DNA from: Sedimentisphaerales bacterium
GTDB lineage: Bacteria; Planctomycetota; Phycisphaerae; Sedimentisphaerales; SM23-30
Strand: one strand, 5' to 3'
Length of the DNA stretch: 64,000 nt
NCBI GenBank assembly: GCA_963666285.1
Contig: OY762711.1
Shown: piece after piece, positions 19,383-46,556 of the stretch
How positions within the stretch are numbered: the stretch's first letter is position 1
How the letters are laid out: every line of letters starts with the position of its first letter
Translations under genes and position numbers: made by a program
Notes under the pieces: model-generated
Told to the model about the DNA's origin: nothing
Seen by the model: only the letters and a program-made list of their open reading frames with translations
Databases searched by the model: none

Positions 19383-19405
19383 AAATCATAAGCTCCTTTC
19401 AAAAG

Positions 19406-20047
19406 TTATCTTTTTCTTCTTTTAATAATCCCGATGGTTCCAATTACTACCATTGATACAATAGAAGGTTCTGGTACTACTGTTGTTTTTGTTACCACTC
19501 CTCCAAAATTGAAATCAACTAATTCATTTGAATAATCTTTTCCTTGAACAAATAAATAATTTGATGCATACTCTTCAATAGTAGCTGGTCGTAATTCTAA
19601 ACTATCATTTACTGAATCATTGAAAATGCATTGAAAAACTAATACGGGCGATAATACTTGACTATTAATATTATTACTTTTACTTTTTATATAATAGTCT
19701 CCTTTATCTGAATTTGATATTGATATCGAATAGTCAACATCATTCGGATTTGTTTGAATTATAAGTGATTCATCGGTATTGTTGGGGTTAACTATTTCCA
19801 GATACATTCCACTTTGACCAGAATAATAATAGTACCCTTTTGCATTTGTGCTTTCATAGAGACTATCAGGTATGGTTTCGTAGGTATAATACCCCGAATA
19901 AGTCGCACCAACTGTTAGGTATGATGGCAATAAATCAGAAGAAGACCCAACACTATCAATAACTCCTTCAAATTCAACCTTAACAAGTGACGCACTAAGA
20001 TTTCCAACAATACATAAAAAACCGATAAAAAATGTTATCTTTTTCAT
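19406..20047 (-). CDS. PEP-CTERM protein (array copy 4)
   Basis: Signal peptide; C-terminal VPEPS + TM + KRRKR. Confidence 0.85.
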   Translation of the reverse strand: MKKITFFIGFLCIVGNLSASLVKVEFEGVIDSVGSSSDLLPSYLTVGATYSGYYTYETIPDSLYESTNAKGYYYYSGQSGMYLEIVNPNNTDESLIIQTNPNDVDYSISISNSDKGDYYIKSKSNNINSQVLSPVLVFQCIFNDSVNDSLELRPATIEEYASNYLFVQGKDYSNELVDFNFGGVVTKTTVVPEPSIVSMVVIGTIGIIKRRKR

Positions 20048-20066
20048 AATATAATTCCTTTTAAAA

Positions 20067-20720
20067 TTATCTTTTTCTTCTTTTAATTATCCCTATTGCA
20101 CCACAACCAAACAATGTTAACGATAGAGGTTCAGGAACAACGTCCACAGAAGATATTTCTACAAAAATATTAAAATCAGGCGCTTCGTTACTCTGATAAT
20201 CTTTGCCAATAATAGTTAATACATTTGAACTGTAATCGTCTAATGAAACTGGCCTTAACCCTAAACTTGTGTTTCCAGAGATTAAATTGCTTAAACGCCA
20301 ATTGAAGTCAACAATGGGGGCAAGAGAAGCATCATTTGATATATTATTCTCACTTGTAATAATATACCCGCCTTCATAAATTGTATCGTTTTCAATAAAT
20401 ATCGAAACTGATACATTTGTTGGATCAGTTTGAAATATTAAAGACTCATTATCATTATTGGGATTTTTAATTTCAACATACAAAGAACTTGGCAATGAAT
20501 CAAATTGGTACTCCTTTGCATCACCATAATCTATAAAAGAAAAATCGTTAGTATCATATTGATAGTACCCTTCAATAACTGAGCCGTTTGTAACATAATC
20601 CGGTAAAGCTCCTTCAAAACCAGAGCCAGTTATAACTCCTTCAAATTCAACCTTAACAAGTGACGCACTAAGATTTCCAACAATACATAAAAAACCGATA
20701 AAAAATGTTATCTTTTTCAT
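20067..20720 (-). CDS. PEP-CTERM protein (array copy 3); true start is ATG at 20720
   Basis: AAGGA RBS before MKKITFF; C-terminal VPEPLSLTLFGCGAIGIIKRRKR. Confidence 0.85.
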   Translation of the reverse strand: MKKITFFIGFLCIVGNLSASLVKVEFEGVITGSGFEGALPDYVTNGSVIEGYYQYDTNDFSFIDYGDAKEYQFDSLPSSLYVEIKNPNNDNESLIFQTDPTNVSVSIFIENDTIYEGGYIITSENNISNDASLAPIVDFNWRLSNLISGNTSLGLRPVSLDDYSSNVLTIIGKDYQSNEAPDFNIFVEISSVDVVPEPLSLTLFGCGAIGIIKRRKR

Positions 20721-20739
20721 AATATAATTCCTTTTAAAA

Positions 20740-21387
20740 TTATCTTTTTCTGCTTTTGATAATCCCGATGGTTCCAATTACTACCATTGATATAATAGAA
20801 GGTTCTGGCACAACTGTTGTTTTTGTTACCACTCCTCCAAAATTGAAATCAACCAATTCATTATTGTAATCTTTTGCATCAATAAAAATATACCCCATTT
20901 CATACTCATCTAATAAAGCTGGTCGTAAACCAAAGCTACTATTATCTGAATTATAAAATGACAAATCAAAAACAACAACAGGTGATAATAAATCATTATT
21001 ACTGGCAATATTGTTACTTCTAATAACATATTGTCCTCCATCAACATTTGATATCGTTATAGAGTAACCCTCATCCGCTGTAGTTGACTGAAATGAAAGG
21101 TAATCATTTGAGTTATTGGGATTAATTATTTCCACATAAATAGCACTTGGTTCGTAATTGTAGTTATAGGTAATTCCATTGCTGTACGTAACAATATTAT
21201 CAGGATTGATGTCATTGTCATAGACATAATACCCGGTATAAGTCGCACCAACTGTTAGGTATGATGGCAATAAATCAGAAGAAGAACCAACACTATCAAT
21301 AACTCCTTCAAATTCAACCTTAACAAGTGACGCACTAAGATTTCCAACAATACATAAAAAACCGATAAAAAATGTTATCTTTTTCAT
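20740..21387 (-). CDS. PEP-CTERM protein (array copy 2)
   Basis: Same N-terminus as copies 3 and 4; VPEPSIISMVVIGTIGIIKSRKR. Confidence 0.85.
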   Translation of the reverse strand: MKKITFFIGFLCIVGNLSASLVKVEFEGVIDSVGSSSDLLPSYLTVGATYTGYYVYDNDINPDNIVTYSNGITYNYNYEPSAIYVEIINPNNSNDYLSFQSTTADEGYSITISNVDGGQYVIRSNNIASNNDLLSPVVVFDLSFYNSDNSSFGLRPALLDEYEMGYIFIDAKDYNNELVDFNFGGVVTKTTVVPEPSIISMVVIGTIGIIKSRKR

Positions 21388-21406
21388 AATATAATTCCTT
21401 TTAAAA

Positions 21407-22036
21407 TTATCTTTTTCTTCTTTTAATTATCCCGATGGTTCCAATTACTACCATTGATATAATAGAAGGTTCTGGCACAATACTAGTAATATTTGCTGAA
21501 ATTTGAAAATATGATGAATACTCTTTACCGTAAAGATAAAGATTGTTTCCTTGATAGTTTTCTAAATCAGGAATAAACAGTTCTGTATTGTCTGCTGGTT
21601 CTATAGCACTCCATAGTTTCAAACTGAAATCAAATAGTGTAGGTAATGAAAAATCGTCACAGGCCCACGTATTACTGCCAGCTGTAAAAGTTCCAGATGG
21701 ACCAATTATTATCCTGAAATCTACATTTGAAGGGTCACTTTCAATTAAAACATAATCATTTTCATCGTTTGGATTAATGAATTTAACTGCCATACCATAT
21801 GGAGCACTATCATACTGGTAAATTGCGTTATTAGTATTAGGGTTTATTATTGGAGAAACATCAGAATCATATACATAACACCCTTCTATTATAGCCCCCT
21901 CGGCAACATAGTCTGGAAAAGGAGAATTTAGGTCATTGATGTGAGTGATCTCAGCTTCAAACTCAACTGTAATAATTCCGGCATTCACAAAACTTGTTAA
22001 AATCAAAATATTTAGAAGTAAAAATATCCTTTTCAT
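21407..22036 (-). CDS. PEP-CTERM protein (array copy 1)
   Basis: Signal peptide; VPEPSIISMVVIGTIGIIKRRKR. Confidence 0.85.
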   Translation of the reverse strand: MKRIFLLLNILILTSFVNAGIITVEFEAEITHINDLNSPFPDYVAEGAIIEGCYVYDSDVSPIINPNTNNAIYQYDSAPYGMAVKFINPNDENDYVLIESDPSNVDFRIIIGPSGTFTAGSNTWACDDFSLPTLFDFSLKLWSAIEPADNTELFIPDLENYQGNNLYLYGKEYSSYFQISANITSIVPEPSIISMVVIGTIGIIKRRKR

Positions 22037-22221
22037 AACAAATAAACCCTTCTGGTTTTTTAACCATAATATAATTATAAGTTCCCTACGTTAACATTAG
22101 TTTTGATGAAATCAGGCCGAAAAACAAAACGCTTAACATACTATTATAATTTACCAATTTAAGAAGTCTTATACAAGAACAAAGTTGATGATATATTGCC
22201 GGTTTTAATGCTATTTAGCAC

Positions 22222-22251
22222 ATTAAACTTCCACACGGTTATTGTTGTCAA
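22222..22251 (-). promoter_or_regulatory. Candidate sigma70 promoter for the PEP-CTERM/RCC1 operon
   Basis: Minus strand TTGACA-N18-TTTAAT, about 185 nt upstream of 22036. Confidence 0.35.
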
Positions 22252-22420
22252 GCAACCTAATGACCAATTCAAAAGTGATTTGCACGTCTGTATATGTGTA
22301 AAGAAAGAATGAGTTCTCATTATTTGTACTAAAATTTCGTTTTTTCGGGAAAAAACCGCTTCTTTTTCATATTATTAAGTATAAACACAGACTATAGAAT
22401 TGTTTTTTCAAGGAGCCAAA

Positions 22421-34795: not shown

Positions 34796-35190
34796 TTTGT
34801 CATAAACTCCAATCACTCATAAAGTTAGGTCCGGAACCACTGCTCCGGAGTTAGCAAATTAATGCTAATTAGTTTACCCTAAACCTGTTCAGATTTCATT
34901 AACAAAATTACTTCGTCAGTTATCGCGTTCAAATTCTCGTACTATCCATAACTTTCTCGTTTGATTTGTCTTGTTTTTTAGAAGTTGTGTGCAAAAGTAT
35001 GCCTGTCTGCGGCAATCTTTTCAAACTTAACATAGATTAGTTTGGTTTAAGCTAAATCTTTTAATTGCAATTGGATATGAGTTTTATTAACCTTATGTAA
35101 AATTTTCTTTTTGTTTTAACTGCATTATGTACAATGTTAAAACAAAATTAGGTTACATATTGCTATAAAGGTATTGTTGTTTTACTGTCA

Positions 35191-35391
35191 GTTTACTTTA
35201 GCAGTTTTTAAGTTGCAATAACGAAGTGCCTCTGGTAAATCGTCTAAAAGGGCCTTCCTGCAACGCTTTGAATTAAATATACTTTCGAGAATTAGCTCGG
35301 AAATACATTTAAATATAAAGTTTTTCATTCAAAAGGCCCTGTTCTGGCCTTTGCGTGTAATGTTGAACAGTCAAAAGTACGATACCGCACT
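35191..35391 (+). ncRNA. Candidate structured 5' leader / cis-regulatory element, copy 1
   Basis: Blocks 35191-35269 and 35335-35391 recur at 39603-39681 and 39784-39840; several stems visible; ends 20 nt before the GH38 ATG. Confidence 0.5.
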
Positions 35392-35411
35392 GTAAAAAAG
35401 GTGAATATATA

Positions 35412-38400
35412 ATGTTATCACATGAAAATACATTTACGCTTAACAAAATAATCGCTCGTATCAAGCTTATCGAACCGCTTGTCTTTAGAAATCGTCTGCC
35501 GCTTGGCAGTATCAGCTATATCGAACATGAAAGAGCTGCCGTTTCGCCGCTTATCCACGAACCCATCGACGAAAGCTGGCAGACTCTTACCCCGCCGTGT
35601 AACTGGGGCGGCTGGAACAGAAATTATACTATGCGTGCCGCTTTTTCAGTTCCTGCCGAATGGGATCAATCTCAACCGGTCGCACTGAACTTCAATCTCG
35701 GCTCTATCGATATCTGGGATTTTACCCATCCGGAAAATCTCCTCTATATCGACGGAAGAGAAATATCTGCTGTTGATATAAACCATACGGTTGTCTATAT
35801 CCCCGCTGAATTCTGTGATGGCAAAAAACATGAAATCGCTATGCACGGATATACCGGCCGCTGGGATATTCACGATAAAGACCCAGGCGGTACTCTGTTC
35901 ATGAACCATAACTACCTCGTACAGATTGACGAGCCGACCAGGGACCTGCTGGCCTTAATGCGGGTTGCTTCTGAAACCGCGAAACGTTTGGATAACAAAG
36001 ATTTCGCTCGTATTCGTATCCTGGATGCGTTAAATACAACCCTGCTGAAACTGCATTCTTCATATTCACCTTGCGATGCCTTCTATGCAACTGTACCAGA
36101 AGCTATGAACATCTTACAGGCCGAACTCCAAAAAGCAGGCCCTGCAATGGATGTCGAACTTAGTGCTATCGGTCATTCTCATATAGATGTTGCCTGGCTA
36201 TGGCGGCTCGAACAGACCCGCCGTAAATGCGGCCGGTCTTTCAATACCGTACTTGCTCTTATAAAGGAACATCCGGAATATATCTTTACCCAGTCTCAGC
36301 CGCAGCTTTATGAATATGTCCGCCAGGATTACCCCGAATTGTTCGAGGGTATCCGGCAGGCCGTCAAAGACGGCAACTGGGAGATCATCGGCGGTATGTG
36401 GGTTGAGGCCGATTGCAACCTTACCGGCAGCGAAGCACTTGCCCGCCAGTTCCTCTACGGCCGCAGGTTCTTCCAGCAGTATTTCGGCAAAGATGTTGAA
36501 TCACCTGTCCTCTGGCTGCCGGATGTGTTCGGCTATAGTGCCAACCTGCCGCAGCTTATCAAACAGGCCGGGCTGGATTATTTCTTTACTATCAAACTGT
36601 CATGGAGCCAGTTCAACCGCATGCCTTACGATAGCTTCTGGTGGCAGGGCATCGACGGCACACAGATTCTTACCCATATGGGCTCAACCCGTACTGATAT
36701 GACCGCACGCGGCGTTACCTATACCGGCATGGCTACCCCCGAAGAGATTATGAACACATGGGAAAGCTGCAATCAGCAGGAACATCATCAGAATATCATG
36801 ACCTGTTTCGGTCATGGCGATGGCGGCGGCGGACCAACCCGTGAAATGCTCGAAAATATCAGTATTATGAATGATTTTCCCGGCCTGCCCAAAGTCAAAC
36901 ATGACAAGGCAATTGACTTCTTCCGCAAGCTAGAGAAAAACAGCGGCGATCGTCTGCCCAAATGGGTCGGAGAGCTCTATCTCGAATATCACCGCGGAAC
37001 ATACACCTCTCAGGCCAAAAATAAACTCGCCAATCGCAGAAGTGAGTTCGGCCTGCACGATGCTGAGTTCCTCGCATCATACGCCGGCATCGTCGACAGC
37101 AGTTATACCTATCCGAAAGCCGAGCTCGAAAAAGCATGGAAGCTTGTCTGTCTGAACCAGTTCCACGATATTATCCCCGGCTCCAGTATCGCCGAGGTCT
37201 ATGTTGATTCTCTCACCCAGTATGAAGAGATCATGGATATTATCAGGTCTGCTATAAATGATTCGCTCACTTGCATCGCAGCAAAAACCGGCGGCGATAT
37301 CATAGCAGCCAACCCAACATCGTTCACTCGCAGCGATTACCTGCTTATCGAAGATAAACTTCAGCCTTCCCAGTCTGTTCAGGCTCCGGATGGTACTGTG
37401 CTTGCCGTCCAGCCAACAGCCGATGGCACACTTATCGATTGCGGCACACTCACACCTTACAGTATCACCCCGCTGACGATTGTTTCCGAACTAACCTCGT
37501 CACCATTTGCCATGACTGTTTCTCAGTCTCTGCTCGAAAATGAATTTATCCGTATCGAGCTTGATAGCTCCGGCGATATAACCCGTATCTTCGACAAGGC
37601 AAATGACAGGGAACTTATCCCGGCCGGTGAAATAGCAAATCAGTTTATCGCTTTCGAAGATCGACCGCTCAGGTGGGATGCCTGGGATGTCGATATATAC
37701 TTCCAGGAAAAAACAAACTTCGCAGCCCCCGCATCAGCTGTCAAAGTCGTAGAAGATGGCCCGCTGCGAGCGTCTGTTGAGATCACCCGAAAAATACTCT
37801 CCAGTACATATACCCAGAAGATATCTATCTCAGCTAACTCACCTAAAATCGATTTTACTACTACAATCGATTGGCAGGAACGCAGTATGCTGCTAAAGGC
37901 TTCCTTCCCGCTCGAGCTGCTCTCAGATCAGGCAACCTACGAGATCCAGTGGGGCAATGTTAAACGGCCTACCCATACCAATACCAGCTGGGATTGGGCC
38001 AAGTTCGAAAGTTGTGCCCAGAAATGGGTCGATCTCAGCGAACCGGACTATGGTGTCAGTTTGCTGAACGACTGCAAGTACGGACATGATATCCATGACA
38101 GCGTTATGCGGATAACCCTGCTAAAATCCGGCATATACCCCGATCCAAACGCTGATAAAGGTACCCACACCTTCGCTTACTCCCTGCTCCCTCATACCGG
38201 TCCTGTCGGCAATGAAACCATCAATGCAGCCCACGCTCTCAACGATCCGTTAATCGGATATTCGAACCAAAAGTCTGCCGCTGAAATTAAACCGCTAAAC
38301 TCGTTTGTTACTTGTGACAGCAACAATGTCGTTATCGAAACAATCAAACTTGCCGAAGATTCCGACTCTGTTATCATCAGGCTCTATGAATCGCTCGGCC

Positions 38401-38558
38401 GGCGTTCCACTGTCAGATTAAATACTTCGTTCACTTTCAAATCCTGTTATCTGTCAGACCTGCTCGAAAACCAGCTGGAACAAATCAATGTTATAGATAA
38501 TACTGTCGAACTCAAACTTACACCGTTCAAAATAGTAACTCTCAAGATCGAGCTATGA
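35412..38558 (+). CDS. GH38 alpha-mannosidase (class 2C, cytoplasmic)
   Basis: GHSHIDVAWLW, WLPDVFGY, GHGDGGGGP, ELYLEYHRGTYTSQ, NQFHDIIPGS, LNDCKYG. Confidence 0.93.
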   Translation: MLSHENTFTLNKIIARIKLIEPLVFRNRLPLGSISYIEHERAAVSPLIHEPIDESWQTLTPPCNWGGWNRNYTMRAAFSVPAEWDQSQPVALNFNLGSIDIWDFTHPENLLYIDGREISAVDINHTVVYIPAEFCDGKKHEIAMHGYTGRWDIHDKDPGGTLFMNHNYLVQIDEPTRDLLALMRVASETAKRLDNKDFARIRILDALNTTLLKLHSSYSPCDAFYATVPEAMNILQAELQKAGPAMDVELSAIGHSHIDVAWLWRLEQTRRKCGRSFNTVLALIKEHPEYIFTQSQPQLYEYVRQDYPELFEGIRQAVKDGNWEIIGGMWVEADCNLTGSEALARQFLYGRRFFQQYFGKDVESPVLWLPDVFGYSANLPQLIKQAGLDYFFTIKLSWSQFNRMPYDSFWWQGIDGTQILTHMGSTRTDMTARGVTYTGMATPEEIMNTWESCNQQEHHQNIMTCFGHGDGGGGPTREMLENISIMNDFPGLPKVKHDKAIDFFRKLEKNSGDRLPKWVGELYLEYHRGTYTSQAKNKLANRRSEFGLHDAEFLASYAGIVDSSYTYPKAELEKAWKLVCLNQFHDIIPGSSIAEVYVDSLTQYEEIMDIIRSAINDSLTCIAAKTGGDIIAANPTSFTRSDYLLIEDKLQPSQSVQAPDGTVLAVQPTADGTLIDCGTLTPYSITPLTIVSELTSSPFAMTVSQSLLENEFIRIELDSSGDITRIFDKANDRELIPAGEIANQFIAFEDRPLRWDAWDVDIYFQEKTNFAAPASAVKVVEDGPLRASVEITRKILSSTYTQKISISANSPKIDFTTTIDWQERSMLLKASFPLELLSDQATYEIQWGNVKRPTHTNTSWDWAKFESCAQKWVDLSEPDYGVSLLNDCKYGHDIHDSVMRITLLKSGIYPDPNADKGTHTFAYSLLPHTGPVGNETINAAHALNDPLIGYSNQKSAAEIKPLNSFVTCDSNNVVIETIKLAEDSDSVIIRLYESLGRRSTVRLNTSFTFKSCYLSDLLENQLEQINVIDNTVELKLTPFKIVTLKIEL

Positions 38559-38835
38559 CAGATTTTTTTTCATCTAAGGTGTTTACATTGATATGACTCT
38601 CATATGCAGAAAACCAAGCTTAAACTCACGTTAGAGATAATCTATTAATAATCTTTCGATTAAATTGGATTTGTTTTTGGTTAGCTGATCATATCTGTTA
38701 TACTGCCATTGACCTGATATCTTTTGCAGTTTAACAGTTGCAGGTAACAAAATCTCTCTGCTAAATACCAAAAGTATGCTTCGTATATAATGTCAGTCTG
38801 AGCCGTACGAATTAAATTTGTTTTTGGAGTTGGAT

Positions 38836-39414
38836 ATGGACCTTAGAATCTATCTGCTTGCTATTGTCCCGATGTTTGTTGCTGCCGATCCGATTGGTAT
38901 GCTGCCGATTTTCCTTGGGCTTACCGAAAGATTCAAAGAAAAACAGCGACGTAAAATTGCAGTACTCTCTGTTGCCGCTGCTTTTGTTGTTTCTGTTTGT
39001 TTTGTCTTTATCGGCAAAACCATGTTCAATTTCCTTGGCATCACTATGTATGATTTCATGATCGCTGGCGGTTCGCTGCTTTTCATTATTGCCACTATGG
39101 ATATAGTCAGCGGTGCAAAATCCGCTCACGGCACCAGGGTATCCGGTATCGTTCCTATTGGCGTTCCGCTCATAGCCGGGCCCGCTGTATTGACTACCGC
39201 TCTTATGCTCATCGACCTCTATGGCATAGCAGCAACCCTTGTCTCGATCATCATAAATTTTGCTATGGTCCTGGCCGTGCTGCTCACCAGCGGTTTCTGG
39301 ATCAGGCTGCTTGGTAAATATGTTGCCGAAGCTATGTCTAAAATTATGAACCTGCTGCTTGCCGCTATTGCCGTTATGCTTGTCAGAAAAGGGCTCGAAG
39401 GGCTGCTGGGATAG
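38836..39414 (+). CDS. MarC family integral membrane protein
   Basis: DPIG...FMIAGGSLLF...VPIGVPLIAGP...KIMNLLLAAIAV; GGAG RBS before ATG 38836. Confidence 0.88.
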   Translation: MDLRIYLLAIVPMFVAADPIGMLPIFLGLTERFKEKQRRKIAVLSVAAAFVVSVCFVFIGKTMFNFLGITMYDFMIAGGSLLFIIATMDIVSGAKSAHGTRVSGIVPIGVPLIAGPAVLTTALMLIDLYGIAATLVSIIINFAMVLAVLLTSGFWIRLLGKYVAEAMSKIMNLLLAAIAVMLVRKGLEGLLG

Positions 39415-39423
39415 TATATGGAT

Positions 39424-39585
39424 ATGAAAATTAGAAACGCTGTAACTCAAGATGCCCGGGCTATTGCCGACATTTTCAACTATTATCTGGCCAATACCCA
39501 AATAATGTTCCAGGATCATCTGGTATTTACCAAATTCCTTTCTCTTTTTAGGCTCAATTATTACTTAAAGCCGCAATATGATTAA
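39424..39585 (+). pseudogene. Truncated GNAT (phosphinothricin/YncA-type) N-acetyltransferase fragment
   Basis: MKIRNAVTQDARAIADIFNYYLANTTIMF resembles the YncA/Pat N-terminus; the ORF then drifts and stops at 53 aa. Confidence 0.65.
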
Positions 39586-39602
39586 GTCGATTTATACTAT
39601 AC

Positions 39603-39840
39603 GTTTACTTTTGTAGTTTTTAAGTTGCAATAACGAAGTGCCTCTGGTAAATCGCCTAAAAGGGCCTTCCTGCAACGCTTTAATATTAAATAAAACGTGA
39701 GACGATAGCGAATTATTCCTGATGTCAACGTACATCAGGACACCTTAATTTTTCATTTTTCACTATTCGTTTTTCACTTAATTGGCACTGTTCCGGCCTT
39801 TGCGCGTAATGTTGAACAGTCAAAAGTGCGATACCGCACT
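39603..39840 (+). ncRNA. Candidate structured 5' leader / cis-regulatory element, copy 2
   Basis: 76/79 and 53/57 identity to the copy 1 blocks; different 102-nt hairpin spacer. Confidence 0.5.
39717..39740. repeat. REP-like palindrome TCCTGATGT-CAACGT-ACATCAGGA, copy 1
   Basis: Identical at 44200-44223 and 45873-45896. Confidence 0.85.
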
Positions 39841-39889
39841 ATCTGACTGCGTATATTTTTAATAAGTGCTTGCCAGAAAGGAATTTAGA

Positions 39890-41089: not shown

Positions 41090-41285
41090 CTTCCTGCAAT
41101 ATCAAAAAAATGACAGGGCGGTACCGGTTGTATTAGATAACTAAAGGCCACTCTCTTCTTCGCTCAATAACAAAGCTCTCTAAGGAGCGACAGTTTGCAG
41201 CAACGGGCGTGAGCCGTGGAAAAATTTCAATTACAGCAGCAAATCCCTTTAGAGCTGCAGAACTTTTCTCTATTGAATTATCCAA

Positions 41286-41427
41286 CTTTGCGGTCTTTGC
41301 GAGATCAAAAATACAAAACACATTCATCTTGCAAACCAACTTTCTTAATTTTTAATTTCCCTCCTTGCTTTTCTCTTCTAACTCTTCTGCGTCCGTGGTT
41401 CAATCTTTACTCCCGCACCAGATTTAA
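41286..41427. repeat. ~150 bp direct repeat, copy 1
   Basis: Closely matches 44018-44173. Confidence 0.85.
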
Positions 41428-41540
41428 ATATACGTCCTATTGTTGAGCATAGCGAAATCCCAATTAATCGGGAATCATCAAGGCAAAATTTACCTCTCAC
41501 TTCTCTTATTTTTACTCTTTTTATTTTACACTTTACACTT

Positions 41541-41565
41541 TCAAACTGCCCATCGGGCAGTTTGA
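41541..41565. terminator. Perfect hairpin right after the stop of the minus-strand gene
   Basis: TCAAACTGCCC-ATC-GGGCAGTTTGA. Confidence 0.55.
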
Positions 41566-43898: not shown

Positions 43899-44017
43899 AA
43901 TAAACCAGTCATCGCGCAAGTGATACCTCCTTTACAATTTTTATTTTACCCTTTACTCTTTGATACCATCCTTCATTAACTTCACTTCCTTCATGGTCAA
44001 ATAATATTCTTTGCAAG

Positions 44018-44173
44018 CTTTGCGTCCTCTGCGAGATCAATAATACAAAACACATTCATCTTGCAAACCAACTTTCTTAATTCTTAATTTTTAATTTCCC
44101 TCCTCCCTCCTTGCTTCTCTCTTCTAACTCTTCTGATTCGTGGTTCAATCTTTGCTCTCGCACCAGCTTTAAA
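44018..44173. repeat. ~150 bp direct repeat, copy 2
   Basis: Matches 41286-41427 with two extra 7-nt units. Confidence 0.85.
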
Positions 44174-44199
44174 ACAAGTCGTCCGCAAATGCGGATTAT

Positions 44200-44223
44200 T
44201 CCTGATGTCAACGTACATCAGGA
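44200..44223. repeat. REP-like palindrome, copy 2
   Basis: Identical 24-mer followed by CACC and TTTTCAT-type heptamers. Confidence 0.85.
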
Positions 44224-44445
44224 CACCTTAATTTTTCATTTTTCACTATTCATTTTTCATTTAACAACGCTTGCCATTAGGCTCATTATAATGTTGAAAC
44301 ATTACAGGCAATCTGTTATATTAGAGCACTTATATCTTATTACTGTAACCGTGTGAACGGTTACTAATTTGTTTGTTGTTGGTCGCCGCCACTGATTACC
44401 GGCTTACTGGCAGCTGGATGCCGATTACTGTTTAGAGGTCTTGTT

Positions 44446-45648: not shown

Positions 45649-45872
45649 CCTTATATATTATTGGTGTAAACCTGTCCGCCTCAGGCGGATTTGTGTTTCG
45701 TGGTTTAGCTCTTCGGCATCTCAACCGTTACCCATGTCCTGAACGAACCACGTTTTCCTTCTCCCTCCTCGCTTCTCTCTTCTTACTCTTCTCACCCTTC
45801 AGGTGCCGCAATTTTGATTGAACTTTACCTACGCGTCAGCTTAAAATAAAGTTGTGAGCGAGAGCGAATTAT

Positions 45873-45896
45873 TCCTGATGTCAACGTACATCAGGA
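45873..45896. repeat. REP-like palindrome, copy 3
   Basis: Identical 24-mer followed by CACC and TTTACAC-type heptamers. Confidence 0.85.
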
Positions 45897-46556
45897 CACC
45901 TCCTTTACACTTTTTATTTTACACTTTACTCTTTGATGCCGCTTCGCGGCATCTGGTCTGCCCAACCTCCAAAAACAGGCCGACACCCTCAAGGTAAATT
46001 CCCGCCGTACCACCTCCGTGGCCCGCCACACACCCTCCGCTGGTCTGTTACGCTTATGCCGCGTGGTCGTGGTTACTATTGCGTGATACCACAAGAGCTC
46101 TTCTCACCGCCGCGTCAATCCGCAGGCCCTTCGTAATCCGCCGTGGCTCTTCGCCCGGTCTTCATTAACCGCTGTCCGCCGCCGTTACTGAGAAGGGCTC
46201 TTCTTCCCGCCGCGCATCCGCCGCAAAGGTCCCTTAACCCGCCTTAGCCCACCACGCGGTCTCCGTTAAACGCCGTCGGCCGCCAGCTTGCCATTTCCAG
46301 CTAAGATCTCATGCCAGCTGAACCGGACCGCATTACATTAGTAAAGGTAGGCCCTGGCCTATATCACAGCCATTTCATTGTACCATCCTGTCACGACAAT
46401 GGCCCGCCCAACCCGTTTCTGCCATTTTCCCGATATATTTAAACGAAAAAAAAGACACACTTTCTTAGCATGTCTTTCTTTATATCTGGGTCCGTATTTT
46501 ACGGTCTTGAGGGCTTTATTAATTCATATTCAATTTTGTTAAGATATTGCCAAAGC

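Follow-up and report, generated by a model that had tools for sequence, protein, structure and literature searches.

A high-copy miniature transposon with IS701-type ends and block-wise strand polarity in a Sedimentisphaerales bacterium

Introduction

The MITEs (miniature inverted-repeat transposable elements) of prokaryotes, among them Correia/NEMIS, RUP, ERIC, Chunjie and QMITE2, are described in the accessible portions of a review and a census as non-coding, intergenic sequences of 100–250 bp that carry terminal repeats and are flanked by target duplications (PMC2229807, PMC10969869). In the same portions of these sources, many copies are truncated, internal modules are optional and the partner transposase is inferred from similarity of the element ends. 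An element that shares these traits occurs twice in the DNA considered here, a 64,000 nt stretch (the window) from Sedimentisphaerales bacterium (assembly GCA_963666285.1, contig OY762711.1). It differs from the MITEs described there in having IS701-type ends, a 5-bp duplication, no TA termini and an asymmetric hairpin at its right tip. Furthermore, its interior geometry is kept over eight genera at approximately 55% identity, and its copies show a block-wise strand polarity. An earlier, sequence-only reading of the window had interpreted the two copies as a duplicated structured leader, for which a riboswitch-like RNA, a small RNA (sRNA) or a non-autonomous element was proposed.

Insertion sequences (ISs) of the IS701 family carry the end signature ---YACT-Y--YR, typically duplicate 4 bp of target and measure 1400–1550 bp, according to the available part of PMC2266710. 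A term search for IS701 in the accessible text of the MITE review and census (PMC2229807, PMC10969869) gave no result. No title or abstract opening retrieved from the full-text literature describes the present element, and the family may be listed in ISfinder or in the supplementary MITE lists of PMC11602168.

A high-copy family with sharp ends and target duplications

Two blocks had been recognized by the sequence-only reading, A (79 nt, with 3 mismatches between its window copies) and B (57 nt, with 4 mismatches), which are separated by 65 and 102 nt, lie on the same strand and end 20 and 49 nt upstream of the ATGs at 35412 and 39890. All of these values were reproduced from the sequence. 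The blocks are the two halves of one element, represented in the window by copy 1 (35191..35390) and copy 2 (39603..39839), and the extent of block B needs one correction, as the target duplication begins at its last base (35391 and 39840), which therefore lies outside the element. When the blocks were compared with the genome by BLAST, both were found together at 133 loci, A alone at 47 and B alone at 28. What had been taken for a duplicated pair is in fact a family of 134 full elements, all on contig C1 and located with a profile of the ends, or of 216 when partial copies are counted.

The ends of the element are sharp. Among 131 candidate loci, both ends could be resolved for 111, and 48 of these copies are flanked by an exact 5-bp duplication (in shuffles, mean 1.7 and maximum 7). 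When one mismatched base is allowed the count rises to 77, compared with 11.1 in shuffles. No excess of 2–4-bp duplications was found among the 111 resolved copies, and nine further copies have an exact 6-bp duplication. The target approximates T-W-W-W-A and is AT-rich and near-palindromic. Most copies (108 of 111) are 164–252 bp long, the remaining three being shorter deletions, and none has a transposase gene, as is typical of MITEs, which are shorter than 500 bp.

Evidence of movement comes from individual copies. The copy at C1:5214283, which has TTGCT on both sides, lies within another repeat, of which 37 paralogues are uninterrupted; the best match among these empty sites is 97% identical and has TTGCT once. 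An orthologous empty site was not present among the matches listed in runs X1, X3 and X4, whose coverage was patchy. Three identical 182-bp copies have unrelated flanks and separate duplications of their own, which indicates recent movement. Neighbouring copies are no more similar than distant ones (0.796 versus 0.791, P = 0.48), and local hopping was rejected on this basis.

Copies differ by modules, namely an 18-bp insert, two alternative middles, three nested hairpins and, within the right tip, an insert of 22 bp. The spacers between blocks A and B had been described as unrelated and as the variable stem of a leader; instead they correspond to the two alternative middles (types I and II), each common to dozens of copies, and the stems are exchangeable modules. 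For the main modules, every pair occurs in all four combinations, which suggests exchange among copies. Above 186 bp, lengths cluster loosely at 10-bp steps (R approximately 0.35, n = 67, copies not independent).

Taken together, these data make it about 95% probable that the family is a MITE, that is, a high-copy, gene-less miniature transposon. The third option of the sequence-only reading, a non-autonomous element, is the one borne out by the IS701-type terminal repeats and the 5-bp duplications. Readings as a group II intron or an attC site, which came from comparing the terminal letters with consensus sequences, were dropped because of the target duplication. Plasmids and phages gave no match to the element, and a single motif match in a viral contig was without it.

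The repeat that is interrupted at C1:5214283 belongs to a separate intergenic family of approximately 100 bp, found at C1 ~4257600–4257704 and more than 30 other places. It hosts a second MITE insertion at C1:1740876 and is itself polarized (28/32).

Relation to neighbouring genes

Gene context was assessed with gene calls of our own, which are approximate and comprise 4311 genes. All of 133 copies fall outside the called genes. In spacers between tandem genes, 47 copies are co-oriented with the genes and 38 are opposite (P = 0.39); in divergent spacers the B side is nearer the gene in 15 of 33 copies, and convergent spacers hold another 15. The distance from element to gene has a median of 114 nt (10–90% range 23–531), and the downstream genes are heterogeneous and unrelated in function. 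In the window, copy 1 is followed by a GH38 protein and copy 2 by a pentapeptide-repeat protein, as had been proposed; the match of the latter to the PEP-CTERM model falls under the cut-off. The suggestion that the element supplies expression signals found no support. The Shine–Dalgarno (SD)-like purine runs of both downstream genes are outside the element, and a sigma-70 scan found no plus-strand site within either window copy.

These data bear on the proposal that the sequences are a host sRNA family or a 5′ leader with cis-regulatory function, riboswitch-like or otherwise, which we now consider extremely improbable. The hairpins listed by the sequence-only reading do occur in the sequence, full-length cores fold somewhat better than shuffled sequences, and the first of the three helices named there, GTTGCA/TGCAAC, differs by two compensatory changes from its counterpart in a relative, G003. 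However, the fold strength is alike on both strands (z −1.1 to −5.6 on the plus strand and −0.7 to −3.5 on the minus strand). Within this genome, compensatory changes in the three helices number 0 (102 copies), 1 (101 copies) and 0 (37 copies), and the first helix is complete in only one of the 17 lineages described below. Covariation was confined to the inner inverted repeat M:M′ and the hairpin tip, both treated below. No Rfam match at gathering score was obtained in the window or in the loci of six relatives (best local E 0.28), in agreement with the earlier statement that no known riboswitch was matched. Target duplications and an empty site also speak against a leader, as do IS ends and an orientation and distance to genes that appear random, with unrelated genes downstream. 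IS ends and random orientation had been named in advance as grounds for giving up the leader, and both are found here. The identification as a MITE removes a false riboswitch candidate.

A candidate partner of the IS701 family

A profile of the MITE left end also located a resident 1427-bp element with terminal repeats, present as seven identical copies that all have exact 5-bp duplications. There are in addition one copy of 89% identity and one fragment, and the 5-bp duplication is present in 8/8 full copies. The element encodes a 430-aa transposase that matches NCBIfam NF049999 (IS701 family) with 286.5 bits against a cut-off of 170, and also PF13546; candidate acidic (DDE) motifs begin at residues 98, 190 and 317. 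The MITE left consensus equals the IS end at 16 of 19 positions. The right end does so at 14 of 18, with differences at positions 3–6. The terminal inverted repeats of the MITE are imperfect, and a core of TCGCA plus a T-run is common to both MITE ends and the IS ends. Relatives of the 1427-bp IS come mostly from Sedimentisphaerales and other planctomycetes. Among these relatives the tip positions vary while TTTCGCA is kept, and 8 of 25 with both ends have exact 5-bp duplications. The right tip of the MITE, GTGCGGTTT, is also found in one NF049999 subclade (L062, L063, L066, L067, L312, L314), where it is likewise asymmetric.

As far as the accessible part of PMC2266710 describes the IS701 family, the MITE left consensus fits its end signature, and the 1427-bp partner lies in its size range and has a DDE transposase. 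Position 4 of the IS and positions 4–6 of the MITE right tip deviate from the signature. Unlike IS701, both the IS and the MITE duplicate 5 bp rather than 4, the MITE has no transposase, and the partner has a full YREK motif, which most IS701 members in that part of the source are without (PMC2266710). Because of the duplication length, we file the partner under an NF049999 subgroup and not under canonical IS701. ISH3 (4–5 bp) and IS1634 (5–6 bp) agree in duplication length as given in the same source, but differ in ends and hidden Markov model.

The similarity of ends and the duplication length make it very likely that the MITE is paired with an NF049999-type transposase. Several observations weigh against this pairing. 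An autonomous IS with the exact MITE ends was absent from 32 loci, 110 distinct metagenome motif hits and 30 class-wide loci, and the sole transposase match among the metagenome motif hits, in L228, is a neighbouring classical IS701. Three relatives (G001, G003 and G018) that are 93–98% complete carry the MITE and have no NF049999 protein above the cut-off. The ends of the resident IS are symmetric and its copies are 100% identical, whereas most copies of the MITE are of greater age (identity to the nearest neighbour, median 0.90), so the resident IS may be a later arrival. Lastly, the IS copies do not clearly follow the strand polarity of the MITE (3 same, 6 opposite). If the pairing is correct, the family attests an IS701 subgroup that duplicates 5 bp of target and is accompanied by a long-lived, non-autonomous element.

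In the mechanism that we propose, an NF049999 transposase, for example that of the resident 1427-bp IS, would mobilize the MITE in trans. It would bind the TTTCGCA core of both MITE ends and tolerate the altered bases 3–6 of the right tip. The element would then be excised and inserted between genes, at AT-rich T-W-W-W-A sites and with a stagger of 5 bases, after which modules were likely exchanged among copies by recombination or conversion. Ala-Leu codons lie 47–49 nt from the IS right tips, and the motif M described below lies 45–47 nt from the MITE left tip. An origin of the MITE from two right ends is plausible but unproven; in other respects its two arms show no significant resemblance (P = 0.18 and 0.63).

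Two further observations concern IS701-type elements. A second such element is present as five near-identical copies of ~1.34 kb (C1 515525, 2157782, 2346489, 4809531 and 5988884) with apparent 6-bp flanking repeats, and its close relative in L228 passes NF033540. In L016, L048, L298, L307 and further NF049999 loci, the left non-coding end contains an inverted repeat in which the ribosome-binding site of the transposase pairs with an upstream anti-SD sequence. This repeat appears by eye to vary in step between elements, and likely protects from read-through transcription.

An interior conserved across genera

To sample relatives, the right-tip motif was searched in 301 genomes of the order and in metagenomes. 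It was found in 19 of the 301, several of these being single chance matches. Full cores of 179–187 bp were recovered from 11 genomes in eight genera, and 50 more from metagenomes. Exact target duplications flank 27 of 46 core-length copies in ten other genomes and 22 of 50 metagenome copies. One locus with a doubtful left end (G007 L120) and copies outside 175–187 bp were left out before lineages were counted. At 72% linkage the cores form 17 lineages with a median identity of 0.55.

At this level of divergence, the layout of the core is nearly invariant. Core length is 179–183 in 16 of 17 lineages. The motif M starts at 41–43, the distance from M to its inverted counterpart M′ is 82–85, and M′ lies 57 from the end in 15 of 17 lineages; the spacer of a central dyad is 10 nt, also in 15 of 17. 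M and M′ covary, with 6.65 of 7 Watson–Crick pairs over the 17 lineages compared with 6.33 when permuted (P = 0.0002, lineages not fully independent).

One explanation is that the interior is selected as a functional structured RNA or single-stranded DNA, in which M:M′ forms a closing helix around the central dyad and the tip serves as a minus-strand terminator. Consistent with this, the M:M′ changes are two-sided and occur in different lineages, and the predicted helix probability is at least 0.97 on the plus strand in 13 of 17 lineages. The hairpin tip has 5/5 pairs in 17/17 lineages, a figure that is partly circular because the pattern by which most relatives were collected required this tip; among unselected copies of the present genome, a compensated GTACG/CGTAC form does occur. 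However, pairing specific to a lineage was not seen in the arms that separate M from M′ (−8.85 kcal/mol for own and −8.73 kcal/mol for chimeric arms, P = 0.42), and the tip was not called by a terminator scan. Orientation relative to gene ends is unbiased, and the same covariation would result from a protein site with two-fold symmetry or from palindrome correction. We consider such a selected RNA or single-stranded DNA unlikely, and with modest confidence favour a role of the interior layout at the DNA level, in synapsis of the ends. Specifically, the fixed spacing and the M:M′ inverted repeat might help a ~180-bp DNA loop to join its two ends, a step in which we have lower confidence. The near-invariant spacing over genera points to cis requirements of IS701-type transposition.

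Two findings argue against a loop of fixed geometry. A 10.5-bp periodicity vanishes without the terminal repeats (1 of 17 lineages at P ≤ 0.05), and two 214-bp copies that lack the central dyad are 98% identical to each other and have duplications of their own. This dyad-less form moved recently, and so the core layout is not strictly required. Two other candidates were rejected: a long rod-like hairpin, as the arms do not covary, and helical A-tract phasing, which reached significance only with the terminal repeats included.

At L079 (G018:C10 near 12635), a right part of the MITE directly follows the apparent end of another IS, and this arrangement suggests a nested insertion.

Strand polarity in chromosome blocks

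Adjacent full copies lie on the same strand in 98 of 133 cases (null 66). Same-strand pairs number 34 of 34 at distances under 5 kb, 47 of 50 at 5–20 kb and 118 of 287 at 100–200 kb. Copy orientation is predicted by replichore for 127 of 216 copies and by gene direction for 117 of 216, and 26 of 52 orientation runs agree with the replichore. Local composition was examined after the means for codon position and replichore had been removed and the elements masked. By this measure 193 of 216 copies are on the pyrimidine-rich strand (shift null mean 108, maximum 142), and 193 of 216 are on the locally G-poor strand. At four-fold sites the element strand differs by −7 points for A, −7 for G, +6 for C and +8 for T, which is larger than, and different from, the G+T excess of the replichore.

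The blocks alternate inside a replichore on a scale of tens to ~250 kb, and appear as a purine/pyrimidine skew at third codon positions that is also strong in G003. Both window copies are in a plus block. Other repeat and IS families are polarized as well (60/66, 28/32, 10/10, 10/11, 8/9 and 5/5), and for four smaller or weaker families polarity is not clear (7/10, 1/4, 1/4 and 2/4). Three of five relatives obey the strand rule as well: pyrimidines are richer on the element strand at all 13 loci that gave a hit in G003 (from 14 fetched), at 9 of 9 loci in G014 and at 11 of 11 in G008, whereas G001 has only 1 such locus of 3 and G018 only 2 of 3. Close pairs in G014 are mixed (3 same strand, 4 opposite). 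Block borders showed no clear link to tRNAs or gene convergence, in a segmentation that over-splits. Asymmetry of the target was rejected as a source of the polarity, as the site is near-palindromic.

Replication-linked orientation biases of IS families have been described, and in the accessible part of PMC3971601 IS701 shows such a bias in few or no chromosomes. As in that work, orientation here follows the sign of local GC skew; unlike the bias reported there, the polarity switches back and forth inside a replichore, at a scale of tens to ~250 kb, and its purine/pyrimidine signature is not that of the replichore (PMC3971601). Through its approximately 200 copies, the element reveals a strong strand asymmetry that alternates along the chromosome; gene direction does not account for it, and replichore does so only weakly.

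A bias imposed by replication forks at insertion, later scrambled by inversions, is one conceivable source. This fork-based reading is kept alive by the six youngest copies (at least 98% identical), which are all in the leading orientation, two of them opposing their local block. In addition, replichore agreement drops with copy age from 14/18 to 9/19, and in G008 the element strand has C and A up and G and T down, resembling ordinary lagging-strand skew. Yet the block signature is larger than that of the replichore and unlike it, an inverted relic of a leading-strand insertion would be G-rich and the element strand is G-poor, gene direction does not follow the blocks, and the runs split evenly by replichore. 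A variant of this explanation assigns movement to the second, classical IS701 and not to the NF049999 element. That IS is polarized like the MITE (5/5) and co-occurs with it in G018 and L228, but has different ends and longer duplications. On balance we find these explanations improbable.

We raise tentatively, and as a doubtful possibility, that the alternating blocks of 10–250 kb reflect a directional DNA process other than oriC forks or transcription. Such a process would drive one strand towards pyrimidines and dictate the direction in which the MITE and several other mobile repeats insert, with M:M′ and the dyad perhaps as its loading or recognition site. In the transposition mechanism given above, a strand-asymmetric host process might select the direction of insertion, again with lower confidence. 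If true, a separate process of this kind would be new chromosome biology in these bacteria.

Anatomy of the window copies

Both copies are on the plus strand, as are all of their parts given here. Copy 1 (200 bp) has the 18-bp insert, middle type I and the short right tip, and its closest other copy, at C1:652926, is 96.5% identical. It lies between TGTCA (35186..35190) and TGTAA (35391..35395), target duplications that match at 4 of 5 positions. Its left terminal inverted repeat (35191..35209) belongs to the end whose family consensus was compared with the IS above, and is followed by the optional 18-bp module with a second M-like motif (35219..35236), which is present in 38 of 111 copies. 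M (AGGGCCT, 35249..35255) and M′ (AGGCCCT, 35334..35340), the left and right arms of the conserved inner inverted repeat, enclose the central TTTCG-N10-CG(G)AA dyad of middle type I (35283..35302). The right terminal repeat (35373..35390) ends in the hairpin tip, a 5-bp stem with one mismatch.

Copy 2 (237 bp) has the 18-bp insert, middle type II with a nested hairpin, and the short right tip. Its flanking 5-mers, TATAC (39598..39602) and TATCT (39840..39844), match at 3 of 5 positions and represent a decayed target duplication. M is at 39661..39667, the middle type II segment at 39708..39781 with a hairpin of 9-bp stem inside it (39717–39740), and the hairpin right tip at 39826..39839. The type II segment is common to a separate mosaic intergenic repeat family, with occurrences also at 44191 and 45864. 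That family, which is made of heptamer runs and small hairpins, occupies 41280–41560, 43900–44280 and 45720–45950 of the window and has 66 matches outside MITEs, 60 of them on the block strand.

Between marC and copy 2 is a 55-codon open reading frame (39418–39585, plus strand) without a Pfam match, possibly a gene remnant, the start of which looks GNAT-like. Elsewhere in the window, positions 19385–22375 hold tandem repeats with a period of ~670 bp and 73–96% identity, which resemble a repeated coding domain on the minus strand.

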